Source: Escherichia virus TH41. From it: a stretch of 64,000 nucleotides of DNA. The notes beneath the pieces were generated by a model, which saw only the letters and a list, made by a program, of their open reading frames with translations, was not told the origin of the DNA and did not search any database. The position numbers and the translations under genes are program-made. The stretch is from the sequence record MT446412.1; one strand, 5' to 3'. Positions 34,169 to 49,780 of the stretch are shown here, in pieces. Each line of letters begins with the position of its first letter. Position 1 is the stretch's first letter.

Positions 34169-34501
34169 ATGAACATCAAAACTTATAACGAGTTTTTAGC
34201 CGAATCCGCCATCAATGAGACCAAATCAATTGATGATAGTGAAGGCTCTCTGAAATTTGGTTTAACCAAAAACGCAGATGGTGTTTTCTTTCAGATTGGT
34301 AATGAACGTTTTCAAACGTCCAAATATTCCAAAGCTGCAGTTGAAGCTGTCCTAAAATCTGGTGGCAAGTGGAAAGGCAAAGAAGGTACTAAAGAAATTG
34401 GTATCGCTGTTGACGGTGGTATGGCTTATTTTAAAATTGGCGATGAACAATTTATTATGTCTGCTCGCGGACGTAAAGAACTGGCAAAACTTTATAAATA
34501 A
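34169..34501 (+). CDS. Internal-protein-like protein with capsid-targeting-sequence N-terminus
   Basis: Starts MNIKTYNEFLAES, matching T4 internal protein capsid targeting sequence with L-x-E cleavage motif; GGAG SD. Confidence 0.6.
   Translation: MNIKTYNEFLAESAINETKSIDDSEGSLKFGLTKNADGVFFQIGNERFQTSKYSKAAVEAVLKSGGKWKGKEGTKEIGIAVDGGMAYFKIGDEQFIMSARGRKELAKLYK
34493..34500 (+). promoter_or_regulatory. Late promoter box TATAAATA upstream of ip-like gene 34510
   Basis: Exact TATAAATA on plus strand overlapping the stop of the upstream gene. Confidence 0.45.
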
Positions 34502-34509
34502 GGTTTCTT

Positions 34510-34782
34510 ATGAAAACTTTCAATGAATTTTTCAACGAGTCACAACTGAATGAAGAAGTAAAAATTAGTAAAGCAGTCAAATCTATGATTGACAATATCA
34601 ATCACCTGTATAGCATTGACTTGACTGACCATATAACAATTGGTAACAAACGCAACTTTTTCGCGTTTGACATTTCAGAACTTGACCAGAACCAAATTAA
34701 TAACATTGAGCGTTTTGCCAATGACAAGGGTCTCCGTCATGAGACAGCTGGTTATAAAAAATATGCAATTTATCTAAAATAG
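34510..34782 (+). CDS. Internal-protein-like protein with CTS N-terminus
   Basis: Starts MKTFNEFFNES; late promoter box immediately upstream. Confidence 0.6.
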   Translation: MKTFNEFFNESQLNEEVKISKAVKSMIDNINHLYSIDLTDHITIGNKRNFFAFDISELDQNQINNIERFANDKGLRHETAGYKKYAIYLK

Positions 34783-34790
34783 GATTTCAA

Positions 34791-35090
34791 ATGCAAACTT
34801 TTCATGAATTTTTGGTAGAAAACAATTACCTGGCAGAAGCAAAAACCTGGCCTCTGGGTCTTCAGAAGAAAAACACCTACAAATGGGTTGACTTCAAAGG
34901 TAAAGGCGACGCTGAAGACTTTGACCAGCTGCGTAAAAATGGTTATACCTTCCTTGACTCTAACTATAACAAAATTACCTCTTTTAGTCAGAAGTCAAGC
35001 ATTGCCTTCATTGAAACTGGTAAGAACTCTCCTAAAGATATCACTGACGACTTCACCGCTTATGGTGTAATTCGTGGTTCAAAAATGTAA
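34791..35090 (+). CDS. Internal-protein-like protein with CTS N-terminus
   Basis: Starts MQTFHEFLVEN; paralogous to 48952-49215 (shared ...AEDF...RKNGY...IAF...DDI...F..YG.I.G.K). Confidence 0.6.
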   Translation: MQTFHEFLVENNYLAEAKTWPLGLQKKNTYKWVDFKGKGDAEDFDQLRKNGYTFLDSNYNKITSFSQKSSIAFIETGKNSPKDITDDFTAYGVIRGSKM

Positions 35091-35119
35091 TGTACACGAT
35101 GGGATAGTTGCAGTATAAT
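35091..35119 (+). promoter_or_regulatory. Early promoter / stem-loop cassette
   Basis: TGTACA -35-like, 17-bp spacer, TATAAT; gggat...atccc inverted repeat flanking -10; conserved leader atcccatcaactactggag. Confidence 0.45.
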
Positions 35120-35145
35120 TATCCCATCAACTACTGGAGCTACTA

Positions 35146-35424
35146 ATGAAAACTTATCAAGAATTTATTAACGAATCAATTAGTCACCCGGATATGCTGG
35201 AAGACCTGAAAGGACATCTGATGGTTAAGGCCAAACCGGTTGATGGTGGCGCATTTGAGTTGTTTCTTGTTAAAGGCGAAAACGGTCCTGATAACAAGAA
35301 AGTTTCAGCAATGATGTTGACTAAAGGTTACAAAGTCAGTTCTTCCTGGAATGCTCCATTCACTTACGCGGTAAGCCCTCGTGAACTGAAAAAAGTTAAA
35401 GCTGGACAATATACAAAAATTTAG
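35146..35424 (+). CDS. Internal-protein-like protein with CTS N-terminus
   Basis: Starts MKTYQEFINES. Confidence 0.65.
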   Translation: MKTYQEFINESISHPDMLEDLKGHLMVKAKPVDGGAFELFLVKGENGPDNKKVSAMMLTKGYKVSSSWNAPFTYAVSPRELKKVKAGQYTKI

Positions 35425-35478
35425 TGTACGTGATGGGATAACTGTAGTATGATTATCTCATCAACTACTGGAGACCAC

Positions 35479-35733
35479 ATGAAAACTTATCAAGAATTTA
35501 TTACTGAATCTGCAAATGCAAAAGTTGAGTTTGCTTATGTTGGTTCGCCGCGTGGCAGTTTTTCCAATGAGGAATTCCGTCGTTCACTGGACAATTTCAT
35601 GCAGTTAAGTGCTGAAGTATCGCATGATGGTCGTTATGACATCGTTACTATTAGCGGTTCTGAAGACCTTATCAAAAAGTGGCACAAGCAGAAAGATGTT
35701 GAGATGCGTTACTATCGTATCCCTAAAAAATAA
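35479..35733 (+). CDS. Internal-protein-like protein with CTS N-terminus
   Basis: Start placed at internal ATG giving MKTYQEFITES; promoter cassette upstream. Confidence 0.65.
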   Translation: MKTYQEFITESANAKVEFAYVGSPRGSFSNEEFRRSLDNFMQLSAEVSHDGRYDIVTISGSEDLIKKWHKQKDVEMRYYRIPKK

Positions 35734-37389: not shown

Positions 37390-37404
37390 ATTACTGAGGA
37401 TATT

Positions 37405-37644
37405 ATGGTTATTAGTGAATCATATGCAGTTATGGATATAACCAGCAACGAGCTGGTTTATAGCTTTGATGAGTTTGACGAAAATGATAAACAAGTCCCA
37501 TGGTTTGCATTAACTGCTCCACCTGAACATAATAAATATCTAAGTTTCCCGACTCGCAGACTAGCAACAAATTTTATGGAATTCAATGACCTTGATTCCA
37601 ATTATAAGGTTGTTAAAGTCAAATTAGCTATTACAATTGAATGA
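37405..37644 (+). CDS. Hypothetical protein (79 aa) just downstream of the tRNAs
   Basis: ATG after GAGGA SD at the 3' end of tRNA-Arg; acidic protein. Confidence 0.45.
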   Translation: MVISESYAVMDITSNELVYSFDEFDENDKQVPWFALTAPPEHNKYLSFPTRRLATNFMEFNDLDSNYKVVKVKLAITIE

Positions 37645-37649
37645 GAAGC

Positions 37650-37830
37650 CGGGTCGCTACCGGTAAGTCGTCGGGGCCTGTTCCCTGGGGTATTGTTCCT
37701 CCCACAGTTTTCTGTGTTCTGGTTCTTTACTATCACATCAGGCACGGCGCACCCTTTTACGGAGTTTTTCCAGAGCGGGCGGTGCGCCCGGTAGTATGAG
37801 AAATCCGAGCGGATGGTGCATCCGGTACTA
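37650..37830 (+). ncRNA. Candidate structured small RNA downstream of the tRNA pair
   Basis: About 180 bp with no plausible ORF, locally GC-rich, with stems GGCGCACC/GGTGCGCC (37746-37788) and CGGATG-gtg-CATCCG (37810-37824); resembles the placement of stable RNA species next to T4 tRNA genes. Confidence 0.3.
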
Positions 37831-37835
37831 TGGAA

Positions 37836-37843
37836 TATAAATA
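37836..37843 (+). promoter_or_regulatory. Late promoter box TATAAATA upstream of ORF 37875
   Basis: Exact TATAAATA on plus strand 32 bp upstream of the ATG. Confidence 0.45.
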
Positions 37844-37874
37844 TTAACAACAACCCTAATAATGGAAAAACAAA

Positions 37875-38258
37875 ATGCTTACATATGCAGAATTTTTAAA
37901 TCGCAATACCATCACCGAATCCGTACTGACTGAAGCTGGCAAATTTTCTTTAGTGGCTCCAGAAAAAGCCGGCGTTTCAATTGGTGACCGTGTTATGTTC
38001 AAGAAACCAGTTAATGGCGTTTCTTGGGGTATCGTAACTGGGTTTGGTATCAAAGCTAAAGATGTTAAAAACGCCGCCGCGCCAGGTGCTAAACTAGCCG
38101 GTTCCAAAGTTTCAACTTATATGGTTCGTCCTAAACAGTCTCCAGGTAATGGTGCCGCTGACTGGGTTGGTGCTCCAATCGAAATCGCTCGTGATAAATT
38201 CTTGAACATCACTGACCGTGCCAACGAACGCGCTGCAATGGCATTCGCTCGCGGATAA
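37875..38258 (+). CDS. Candidate internal protein with divergent CTS-like N-terminus
   Basis: Starts MLTYAEFLNRNTITES (..TY.EF.. plus I-T-E cleavage-type motif); late promoter box upstream; terminator downstream. Confidence 0.45.
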   Translation: MLTYAEFLNRNTITESVLTEAGKFSLVAPEKAGVSIGDRVMFKKPVNGVSWGIVTGFGIKAKDVKNAAAPGAKLAGSKVSTYMVRPKQSPGNGAADWVGAPIEIARDKFLNITDRANERAAMAFARG

Positions 38259-38295
38259 GAACACTTGCCTTGCAGGTGGAACCCCGACAAGGTAT

Positions 38296-38325
38296 AGCCC
38301 CTTCCGAAAGGTTGGGGCTTTTTTA
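38296..38325 (+). terminator. Rho-independent terminator
   Basis: gcccc...ggggc stem with GAAA-containing loop followed by TTTTTT. Confidence 0.6.
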
Positions 38326-38347
38326 TAAATCAACTAAAGAGAAACGT

Positions 38348-38902
38348 ATGAAACTGTTAAAATATTTGAGTTGGATTCTGTTAGTTCCGCTGGATTTTAT
38401 CTCCATGATTCTGGCCGTTATCCTGGCTCCATTTGTAGTTCCGTTCCATAATAAAAAGACTGGTAAACTTCCGTTCGGGTTTGATTGGATGATGACTTAT
38501 GATAATCCGATTGATGGTGACCGTGGTCATATCAAACGTTGGTCAAAAATCCGAAAATGGCCATTAGGTGTTTACTTCCAACGAGTAGCCTGGCTCTGGC
38601 GAAACAAAGCATACAATTTTGCTTACCACAAGCTCGGTCGTGATTGCAATTCAGAATTCCATTATAAAGGTAATCCTGATGTTGAATCTGGTTCCCCAGA
38701 TAAAGCTCATCATGGATGGCTCTTTATGTGGACGGACAATGCCTGGGGTGTTTTTGCTTCTGTTCCTTATCTTAAGGTCGGTGGAATCACCTTTTATCTG
38801 CGTGTTTATTGTGGCTGGAAGCTCAAGAGCCTTCTGTCCCGACCCATCCCTAAGGCTATGCTCGCCTTTCATATAAATCCGTTCCGCTTTTATAAGAACT
38901 AA
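38348..38902 (+). CDS. Membrane-anchored protein (184 aa)
   Basis: N-terminal hydrophobic segment LSWILLVPLDFISMILAVILAPFVV; start placed at ATG with AAAGAGAAA leader. Confidence 0.5.
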   Translation: MKLLKYLSWILLVPLDFISMILAVILAPFVVPFHNKKTGKLPFGFDWMMTYDNPIDGDRGHIKRWSKIRKWPLGVYFQRVAWLWRNKAYNFAYHKLGRDCNSEFHYKGNPDVESGSPDKAHHGWLFMWTDNAWGVFASVPYLKVGGITFYLRVYCGWKLKSLLSRPIPKAMLAFHINPFRFYKN

Positions 38903-39043: not shown

Positions 39044-39469
39044 ATGAACTTTCTGACCCTGACCTCTGCATTCTCTGTTACCCGCATCACTAACAAAATG
39101 GTTGCTGACGAAGTATGTGAAATCTGCATTCGTGAAGATGCACTTATCCATCTGACTTCAACCCAGATTGTTGCCATTGCCAAGTCCCTTAATTCTGAAC
39201 TGAAGGTAAACACCAAACAGTCAAAAGAATCTATCATTGAATTAATCCAAGCTGAAATGATTGAATTCCCAATTGAAGAAGTTAAAGAAGAAAAAATCCA
39301 GTCCAAATCTGGTAACGCTCGTGACATTTGCTTCCAGGCATTTGCAGAAATTGATATGAATGATAATGCAGCTCGTCGCGCTCTGATTGATGTTCTGGTT
39401 ACCACCCATGATATCAAAAAGACTGTTGTTCAGTCATATGCATCCAACTTCCGCAAAGCTCAAAAATAA
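39044..39469 (+). CDS. Hypothetical protein, paralogue A (141 aa)
   Basis: C-terminal region ...NAARRALIDVLV...VVQSYASNFRK shared with the 39553 ORF. Confidence 0.55.
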   Translation: MNFLTLTSAFSVTRITNKMVADEVCEICIREDALIHLTSTQIVAIAKSLNSELKVNTKQSKESIIELIQAEMIEFPIEEVKEEKIQSKSGNARDICFQAFAEIDMNDNAARRALIDVLVTTHDIKKTVVQSYASNFRKAQK

Positions 39470-39552: not shown

Positions 39553-39996
39553 ATGAAAACTTCAAAACTGGTTAAGTATGTTAAACTGGCATTAAACAAC
39601 TCTTCTGAAGCTGAAGCACAATCCGCAGCACGTATGTTCTTCAAACGTCTGACAGCTGAAGGTATTTCATTTAACCCGGCAGTATTTGGTATCACTCGTG
39701 GCGAAGCTGCTAAACTGGCAACTCTGGCAGGTAAAATTTTTAAAGGTCTGAATGATGGACAGGTTAAACCAGAAGTTAAACCTACTCCTAAAGCTGAACC
39801 AAAAGCTGAACGTAAGGCACCTAAACGCTCCGGTATGAGCAACAAAGATTTATGCTATGATATGTTCAAAACTGTTAATATGTCTAATGGTGCTGCTCGC
39901 AGAGCTGTTATTGATATGATTGTGCGTGAGTTTGGATTCAACAAAGCATCAGTTCAGTCTTATGCTTCCAACTTCCGCAAAGAATTTGAAATTTAA
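39553..39996 (+). CDS. Hypothetical protein, paralogue B (147 aa)
   Basis: C-terminal region ...NGAARRAVIDMIV...SVQSYASNFRK shared with the 39044 ORF; Lys/Pro-rich linker. Confidence 0.55.
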   Translation: MKTSKLVKYVKLALNNSSEAEAQSAARMFFKRLTAEGISFNPAVFGITRGEAAKLATLAGKIFKGLNDGQVKPEVKPTPKAEPKAERKAPKRSGMSNKDLCYDMFKTVNMSNGAARRAVIDMIVREFGFNKASVQSYASNFRKEFEI

Positions 39997-48158: not shown

Positions 48159-48575
48159 ATGACTCGCATTAATTTAACTCTGGTATCTGAACTTGCTGAC
48201 CAACATCTTATGGCTGAATATCGTGAGCTTCCTCGCGTGTTTGGTGCAGTTCGCAAACATATACAAAATGGTAAAAAGGTTTCTGACTTTAAAATTCCAT
48301 CATCTTTTCTTTTAGGAACTGGTCATGTCACCTTCTTTTATGATAAACTTTTGTTCCTTAAAAACCGTCATCAAGAACTTATTGCGGAATGTTTAAAGCG
48401 AGGGTTTAACATAAAAGATATTTCTACCCAAGATTTAAATGATATTCCTGATGAATGGAAGAATGATTATCAACCATCAATCTGGTCAATTGAAATCAGT
48501 CAAGCCAGACTGAATGAGAAAATTTCTCAAAAGCCTACCTGGTACAAATACTATGGGAAAGCTGTGTACGCTTAA
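48159..48575 (+). CDS. denV: Endonuclease V (pyrimidine dimer DNA glycosylase)
   Basis: 138 aa; N-terminus [31 protein letters not shown] matches T4 endo V. Confidence 0.9.
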
Positions 48576-48593
48576 CTAAAAAGGTTGTATAAT
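48564..48593 (+). promoter_or_regulatory. Early promoter (GTGTAC -35-like, TGTATAAT extended -10)
   Basis: 18-bp spacer; overlaps the denV 3' end. Confidence 0.4.
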
Positions 48594-48623
48594 GATTTTA
48601 TCAACCAAACAATGGAATATAAA

Positions 48624-48938
48624 ATGAAAACTTATCAAGAATTTATTACTGAATCTACCCAAAAACGTGTTGAAGGCGGTTATGTCTGGATTGAACAGTT
48701 AACCCCACCAAGTGAAACAAGCACAGGTTCATGGAAAATTACTGTTGATGGTCCTGGCGGCAAACGCAAGACTATTAAAGAAATTAAAGGCTATTATGAT
48801 GAAGCTAAATCATGGGCGGGTAGTCATGTAATGCAGATTAAAATTGCAAATCCGGATAACGTTCATGCAGCAAAAGCATTCCGTCGTATTGGTAATAAAC
48901 TTTATGATGCGTTTTTGCGCGATTTCCCTAAAGCTTAA
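48624..48938 (+). CDS. Internal-protein-like protein with CTS N-terminus
   Basis: Start placed at internal ATG giving MKTYQEFITES. Confidence 0.65.
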   Translation: MKTYQEFITESTQKRVEGGYVWIEQLTPPSETSTGSWKITVDGPGGKRKTIKEIKGYYDEAKSWAGSHVMQIKIANPDNVHAAKAFRRIGNKLYDAFLRDFPKA

Positions 48939-48951
48939 TTAAAGAGACATT

Positions 48952-49215
48952 ATGAAAACGTATCAAGAATTTATTACTGAATCTGCCAAAGCTCCTGCTG
49001 GTTCCTTTAAAGTCCGCGCCTTCGCTGGCGATGCTGAAGACTTTGGCACCATGAAGCGCAATGGTTATTCTTTCTTTGGTGGCGATGGTAAAGAAATTGT
49101 CACATATGCAAAACGTCGCGAAATCGCATTCGTGGTTGCTGGTAAGAAAGTTGATGCTGACGATATTGAATGGGACTTTGAGACCTTTGGTATTGTTTCT
49201 GGCGGTAAAGCATAA
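48952..49215 (+). CDS. Internal-protein-like protein with CTS N-terminus
   Basis: Starts MKTYQEFITES; paralogue of 34791-35090. Confidence 0.65.
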   Translation: MKTYQEFITESAKAPAGSFKVRAFAGDAEDFGTMKRNGYSFFGGDGKEIVTYAKRREIAFVVAGKKVDADDIEWDFETFGIVSGGKA

Positions 49216-49217
49216 CT

Positions 49218-49246
49218 GTTTACTTTATGATGGGATAGTGTATAAT
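49218..49246 (+). promoter_or_regulatory. Early promoter / stem-loop cassette
   Basis: GTTTAC, 17-bp spacer, TATAAT; gggatag...tatccca inverted repeat; conserved leader. Confidence 0.45.
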
Positions 49247-49274
49247 TATCCCATCAACTACTGAGGAGAATAAA

Positions 49275-49472
49275 ATGTTAACTTATAAAGAATTTATGAA
49301 AGAAGTTAAAAAACTTAAAAAGACTTCTGGCGATGTTAAAATTGAAATCCATGGTCAAAACGTAAATGTGGTAGCGGATGGCCAGGCATTAGTTCTTTAT
49401 AGTGATAAAGACCAAGAATTTCGTGAAGCACAAAAGAAAAAATTTACCGTATGGCTTAAAAAAGCTGTTTAA
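49275..49472 (+). CDS. Internal-protein-like protein with divergent CTS
   Basis: Starts MLTYKEFMKEV; 65 aa. Confidence 0.5.
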   Translation: MLTYKEFMKEVKKLKKTSGDVKIEIHGQNVNVVADGQALVLYSDKDQEFREAQKKKFTVWLKKAV

Positions 49473-49480
49473 GGACCAAT

Positions 49481-49780
49481 ATGAAAACGTATCAAGAATT
49501 TATCACAGAAGCCAAAGCTCCTAAAGCATTTCAAATCGGAGTCCAGGGCAATTTAGACCAACAATATGTTGATGCTATTGTCGCAAGCCTCGGTAAACAA
49601 GGTGTACAAGTGGATTTGGTTGATTTTACTAAAGGTAATACTTTTAATATTGTCGCATCTAAAGGTTCTTTAGCTAAAGTTAAAAAGGCCTTTGGCGTAG
49701 CACAAGCATATGAAATTGACCATTCTGAATTAGAAAATAAAGGTCGCCAGAACACAATTAAAGGCTCTGGTTCTTTTTAA
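49481..49780 (+). CDS. Internal-protein-like protein with CTS N-terminus
   Basis: Starts MKTYQEFITEA. Confidence 0.65.
   Translation: MKTYQEFITEAKAPKAFQIGVQGNLDQQYVDAIVASLGKQGVQVDLVDFTKGNTFNIVASKGSLAKVKKAFGVAQAYEIDHSELENKGRQNTIKGSGSF

Follow-up and report, generated by a model that had tools for sequence, protein, structure and literature searches.

We consider it rather likely that the product of the open reading frame (ORF) at positions 37875-38258 (+ strand) of the DNA analysed here is an internal head protein (Ip) of T4-like Gaprivervirus phages that had escaped annotation, and that it is packaged, processed by the prohead protease gp21 and injected. The sequence offers good support for the view that this is a further late, packaged protein with a capsid-targeting N-terminus (CTS) and that it would be cut further in than position 10. 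Its packaging, cleavage and injection are predicted from the motifs described below, and a role against host defences is suggested by analogy with related proteins. Among the points against an Ip, the glutamate usually found at residue 10 is missing, the gene is located outside the ip clusters, and it carries the label 'hypothetical' in phage VR20. The literature on Gaprivervirus and VR20 virion proteomics yielded no virion proteome for any phage that carries the gene.

The cassette in the rnaC slot

The window, by which we mean the whole 64,000-nt stretch of DNA that was analysed, belongs to a T4-like coliphage of the genus Gaprivervirus. By megablast, its segment 37000-39000 was 100.0% identical over the full length to Escherichia phage UPEC01. 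A distant-mode search with 37400-38340 gave 99.9% identity to UPEC01 with a one-base indel, and the same stretch was 91% identical to vB_EcoM_VR20. The order on the + strand is 3, 1, 57A, 57B, the ipI-type cluster, trna.4, trna.3, tRNA-Met, tRNA-Arg and then a small ORF, 3′ of which are the rnaD homologue, ORF 37875-38258 and accessory genes without known function. The candidate ORF is about 2.1 kb downstream of the last ORF of the ipI cluster, after tRNA-Met, tRNA-Arg and rnaD, and is outside both classical ip clusters (ipI; ipII/ipIII). Location in one of these clusters is a habit of the family and not a requirement for Ip membership. An Rfam scan at the locus found two tRNAs and nothing further. 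The homologue of rnaD, the T4 stable 'species 2' RNA, was placed at 37641-37753 (+ strand) by a distant blastn match, the T4 annotation and alignments. Between tRNA-Arg and this homologue is a 79-aa ORF (37405-37644) that is annotated in relatives and has no family match; the likeness of its internal YSFDEF to a CTS core is probably accidental.

The 3′ end of the rnaD homologue (...GGCGCACC) forms the left junction of a 507-nt cassette (37754-38259) that comprises a leader, a late promoter box and the ORF. This cassette fills the exact slot of rnaC in T4 and in Gaprivervirus P479, the limits of which are the 3′ end of the rnaD homologue and a shared terminator (37641-38325; compare L003 2140-2520 and L006 1195-1560). 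Since P479 has a T4-like rnaC between the same flanks, and since phage P896 has the ORF without the next gene (DUF7338), the cassette is an independent accessory module. Within one genus, rnaC and an ip-like gene are alternative occupants of the slot. The next gene itself (38348-38902) matches DUF7338 (Pfam E = 4e-63) and is called 'holin' or 'amidase-6 domain' in some records; as phages P896 and TH54 lack it, this gene forms a further, independent accessory cassette.

The 3′ flank shared with these phages (38260-38325, + strand) contains a hairpin at 38266-38294, a terminator hairpin at 38296-38319 and six U residues at 38320-38325. The latter hairpin with its U6 has a minimum free energy of -27.3 kcal/mol (z = -2.7); its stem is interrupted, and for this reason a simple terminator scan did not pick it up. 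The same terminator (38296-38325) is common to T4, P479 and phages without the ORF, where it is 3′ of rnaC, and several records annotate it as 'terminator'. It thus belongs to the operon of tRNAs and stable RNAs and not to ORF 37875-38258 alone. The preliminary description had noted a terminator downstream of the ORF; the terminator is there, but it is not the ORF's own.

The coding sequence (37875-38258, + strand; start MLTYAEFLNRNTITES) specifies 127 aa plus a stop codon, giving a precursor of 13.5 kDa, and corresponds to VR20_145, a 'hypothetical protein'. Among eight phage copies 39 nucleotides vary, 38 of them at the third codon position, and the sole amino-acid change is a conservative one, V17I. 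ORF 37875-38258 is therefore a real gene under strong purifying selection. Two antisense ORFs (37856-38107 and 38112-38333) were ruled out, as the variation tracks the codon phase of the + frame. The gene is carried by 15 GenBank phages with a protein identity of at least 99% in all, and the VR20 protein is identical to the candidate. Ten records have an annotation at this position, which is 'hypothetical' in every one; the annotators of VR20 named other ip genes but left VR20_145 'hypothetical'. The gene is missing from the close relatives P479, CJ20 and RZ.

The variable sites are unevenly distributed along the gene. Codons 1-16 have no substitution in the eight copies, and the 110 nt upstream differ from the window by 0-3 positions per copy (together 37765-37922). 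Codons 17-128, the stop counted, hold all 39 variable sites (38 third-position; P about 0.003 for the coding part). The invariance of codons 1-16 and of the 110 nt before them points to either constraint at the nucleotide level or recent conversion of this 5′ end.

A T4-type late promoter box, TATAAATA (-13 to -6), matches exactly at 37836-37843 (+ strand), and a transcript would start near 37849. The preliminary description had put the box 32 bp upstream, which is right within one base, as we counted 31 nt between the box and the ATG. The window holds 17 exact TATAAATA boxes versus 5.0 +/- 2.3 in shuffled sequences; because about five are thus expected by chance, a single box taken alone is weak evidence. 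The box at 37836-37843 is in non-coding DNA directly 5′ of the ORF and is invariant in the eight phage copies. In addition, ATAAATA is present at -35 to -41 from the ATG in all three distant homologue loci (L007, L008 and L009), with a shuffle frequency of 0.02-0.11 per locus. Late promoters of the T4 family commonly have A or T at -13 (PMC2988020, PMC1524935). By its box, the ORF looks like a T4 late gene. A weak Shine-Dalgarno-like GGAAA (37863-37867, + strand) may serve as ribosome-binding site 7 nt before the ATG.

The leader of the cassette (37754-37835, + strand) is GC-rich and non-coding and was found only in phages that carry the ORF. Just 5′ of the late box it contains a 16-nt motif, CCAGAGCGGGCGGTGC (37770-37785), which recurs 34 nt later as TCCGAGCGGATGGTGC (37804-37819); the same motif is found in L009, at about 2904-2920, where it precedes the distant homologue and its late box. 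Folding of the leader region (37640-37875) was not exceptional (z = -0.8), and a simple sigma-70 scan found promoter-like sites to be no commoner than in shuffles. Among the CTS genes, an exact late box stands immediately 5′ of 34510 and 37875 only. Early-type sigma-70 promoters, and not TATAAATA, precede most other CTS ORFs of the window as well as T4 ipI (L010). In several cases (35086-35145, 35419-35478, 48564-48623 and 49215-49274, and upstream of T4 ipI in L010) the promoter overlaps an inverted repeat, GATGGGATA...TATCCCATC.

The capsid-targeting N-terminus and its diverged relatives

The first eight residues of the protein, MLTYAEFL (37875-37898, + strand), contain the CTS core, in which Y4 and F7 are the residues reported to be critical for targeting. 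In work of Mullaney & Black (1996), as summarised in PMC9026906, targeting rests mainly on residues 4 and 7 and a D10 mutant still enters the head, whereas residues 8 and 10 determine processing. In the candidate, Y4 and F7 are retained, L8 is present, and R10 takes the place of the usual Glu. When 1693 possible starts were considered (ORFs of at least 40 aa, six frames), the motif M-x-[TS]-[YF]-x-E-F was found at nine ORF starts in the window versus 0.05 expected. On this basis the TY.EF core that the preliminary description had seen at the start of the ORF is no chance match, and MLTYAEF reads as a genuine capsid-targeting core. All nine starts are on the + strand and eight of them are in the two ip clusters (34510-35733 and 48624-49780). 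The preliminary description had counted the candidate as a tenth packaged protein, and the number holds: there are nine other CTS ORFs, including 34169 (MNIKTYNEFLAE), in clusters spanning 34169-35733 and 48624-49780. ORF 34169 has a three-residue N-terminal extension, MNI-KTYNEFLAE. The paralogue at 49275 also begins with MLTY (MLTYKEFMKE), and in several CTS paralogues of the window E10 is followed 5-9 residues later by another [LIM]-x-E site.

Diverged relatives of the protein are few. When 1.84 billion representatives were searched exhaustively with HMMER, three matched; profile searches of a set of 5.8 billion proteins added one more lineage and then, in the third profile search, no new member. 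IMG/VR and metagenome contigs, when scanned, yielded identical copies only. The three diverged relatives show 38-41% identity to the candidate across the alignment and are all on T4-like metagenome contigs. They are P0005 (134 aa; MLTYNEFLEE KSGNNLTE|AIVKGKGKP), P0003 (202 aa; MYTFKEFLVE SELDLITE|AKK) and P0004 (125 aa; MKSFKEFMLSE|KVIKGKGKP). Each has a CTS-like start and a terminator at the gene, and in L007 and L009 the homologue is 3′ of tRNA genes, as in the window. An [LI]-T-E-A site is conserved in P0005 and P0003. As judged from the alignments, the CTS core has been retained, as has an [LI]-T-E-A about 18-20 residues in, whereas the body of the protein has strongly diverged; of two cleavage sites, the candidate's lineage has lost only the first. 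A fragment that is 88% identical, P0002, has no change in residues 1-21 versus seven in residues 22-53 (Fisher p = 0.03), although such conservation statistics are thin because the family has only four lineages. Downstream in the window, two neighbouring paralogous ORFs (39044-39469 and 39553-39996) both end in VQSYASNFRK and have no Pfam match. On a distant metagenome contig, a homologue of the latter (L008 1121-1564) is directly 3′ of the gene for P0004, and the linkage of this type of ORF with the candidate's family is therefore conserved.

These relatives bear on the possibility that the protein is not packaged. Its N-terminus could be a relic of recombination among ip genes, whose CTS-coding 5′ ends would act as a shared homology box, and the product could be a late cytoplasmic protein. 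The loss of Glu10 and the location outside the ip clusters would suit such an origin, and the near invariance of codons 1-16 and of the upstream 110 nt could reflect recent gene conversion and not selection on the protein. A relic would be expected to decay, however, and the CTS core is kept in all four lineages in spite of their divergence, with F/Y4, E6 and F7 invariant. The N-terminal architecture also matches that of the functional propeptide of T4 IPI. We therefore regard a relic as unlikely, although it is the alternative that fares best, and favor a functional targeting signal.

The predicted propeptide, its candidate cleavage sites and the predicted mature protein

If the core targets the protein to the head, the remainder of the predicted propeptide would be residues 9-20 (NRNTITE|SVLTE|; 37899-37934, + strand), and the sequence reads MLTYAEFLNRNTITE|SVLTE|AGKF. 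It has two candidate gp21 sites, ITE15 (37911-37919) and LTE20 (37926-37934), and [LIVM]-x-E occurs nowhere else in the protein. The preliminary description had pointed to an I-T-E site further in, which is present at residues 13-15, but did not mention the second site, L-T-E|A, at residues 18-21. Residues 8-10 of the candidate are L-N-R and do not form the gp21 site [L/I]-x-E. Since T4 IPI also lacks a site there, [L/I]-x-E at 8-10 defines the IPII/IPIII subtype and not the Ip class as a whole. At the level of sequence, the candidate does have a gp21-type site that closes a propeptide of 10-19 or so residues, and natural propeptides are 10-19 residues long (PMC9026906).

The preliminary description had also called the propeptide atypical and longer. 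This does not stand, because T4 IPI is built alike, with a propeptide of 19 residues and without Glu10. Its translation reads MKTFKEFTSTTTPVSTITE|ATLTSEV... and starts with MKTFKEF. The solved IPI* chain (2JUB) comprises residues 20-95, and IPI is therefore cut at ITE19|A. The same tripeptides occur at the mapped gp21 sites of Alt, ITE-6 and LTE-619 (PMC5694885), and the maturation site of gp23, LTE65|A66, is conserved in VR20. VR20 has a gp21 that is 88% identical to that of T4, and it also encodes gp22, gp67 and gp68. Between the two candidate sites, LTE20|A21 is more likely than ITE15|S to be the final cut, since [LI]-T-E-A is conserved in P0005 and P0003, equals gp23 E65|A66, and marks the end of the low-confidence segment in the structural model.

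We considered it improbable, more so than the relic, that the protein is packaged yet unprocessed. In this case the tag would stay on without Glu10, as in the IPIII D10 mutant, and ITE and LTE would be unused. Arg at position 10 and the mapping of the processing determinants to residues 8 and 10 (PMC9026906) are consistent with this idea, and some head proteins of giant phages work unprocessed (PMC5694885). On the other hand, two perfect gp21-type sites, the only ones in the protein, are found within the next 10 residues. P0005 and P0003 keep [LI]TEA, and T4 IPI is cut at ITE19 even though it has no Glu10. Processing within residues 15-20 is thus the reading that we prefer.

After a cut at LTE20|A21, the predicted mature protein would be A21-G127 (37935-38255, + strand), with 107 aa, 11.1 kDa and a pI of about 10.3. 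A structural model, built from five sequences and of moderate confidence (pLDDT 70.6), shows an SH3-like small β-barrel followed by a C-terminal helix, and its low-confidence, disordered segment is residues 1-21, which end at the LTE|A site. Scans of the candidate protein against Pfam, PHROGs and NCBIfam gave no match; the Pfam, PHROG and NCBIfam searches found no similarity to any known anti-defence protein. A sequence-profile search of the PDB returned nothing below E = 0.6, and Foldseek searches of PDB and BFVD gave a significant match only to the VR20 entry of the protein itself. The mature domain was judged not to be homologous to T4 IPI (BLASTP E = 0.53; hhalign aligned the N-terminal region only, at 51% probability). 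Like other Ips, the candidate is small and basic, and it is a dispensable protein that varies among close relatives.

It is very improbable that the protein is instead a minor scaffold or core component for head assembly that is degraded or expelled and not injected, because, although gp67, gp68 and gp22 are core proteins also cut by gp21 (PMC5694885) and the candidate is basic and apparently expressed late, P479, CJ20 and RZ have rnaC instead of the gene, so that it is dispensable for assembly, and its mature region has no internal gp21-type site, as expected if the protein is to persist in the head.

A model for the protein and its comparison with known systems

We propose the following model for an injected Ip. 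Late transcription of the gene would be driven by the TATAAATA box, and transcripts that read through from the tRNA/rnaD operon would probably contribute as well. The MLTYAEF core would dock the precursor on the gp22 scaffolding core while the prohead assembles. With Arg and not Glu at position 10, gp21 would make no cut there; it would remove a propeptide of 15-20 residues at ITE15|S and/or LTE20|A, as in T4 IPI at ITE19|A. A basic SH3-like β-barrel of roughly 11 kDa would be released, stay with the packaged DNA and be injected with it. By analogy with T4 Ip1-3, its most likely role would be to neutralise a host defence at DNA entry.

The candidate would be a rare addition to a well-known class. 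It implies no new mechanism and otherwise confirms known biology. Within these bounds, ip genes can sit beyond the two classical clusters, and motif searches that demand Glu10 will miss propeptides of the IPI type. The protein is also very rare, with four lineages among billions of proteins. Given the results for Ip1-3 (PMC12373910), each new CTS-bearing protein is a candidate anti-defence effector. A bolder reading, to which we assign only a slim chance, is that the locus is a third, unrecognised ip locus at which the ip cassette and rnaC are exact alternatives. If so, rnaC could be a host-specific counter-defence and the SH3-like protein a new class of injected inhibitor, with a possible target such as a Type IV/GmrSD-like nuclease beyond the coverage of Ip1-3. 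This hinges on whether the occupants of the slot are interchangeable accessory modules, rnaC being a 50-year-old orphan stable RNA.

Among known systems, T4 IPI (Ip1; IPI*, 2JUB) is the one that the candidate resembles in its N-terminal plan. Both have M-x-T-[YF]-x-E-F, no Glu10, a Thr/Ser-rich linker and [IL]-T-E|A at 19-20, and both are small, basic, non-essential and encoded in the accessory region 57B-ipI-tRNA-e. The predicted fold of the candidate is unlike that of IPI*. SH3-like small β-barrels as in KOW, Tudor, PWWP and BAH domains are generic and specify no function, and the candidate has no sequence-family match among them. The IPII/IPIII type of T4, with the CTS MKTYQEFI-x-E and a 10-residue propeptide, and the nine other CTS ORFs of the window share with the candidate the CTS core, the presumed route via the gp22 core and cleavage by gp21, which for the candidate is a prediction. 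They are cut at Glu10, however, whereas the candidate cannot be, and its mature domain is unrelated to theirs. T4 Alt and gp23 have cleavage tripeptides identical to those of the candidate but are otherwise unrelated to it. Recent work showed that T4 Ip1, Ip2 and Ip3 are all injected and inhibit distinct GmrSD-type restriction enzymes (PMC12373910), and it is with these proteins that we would group the product of ORF 37875-38258.
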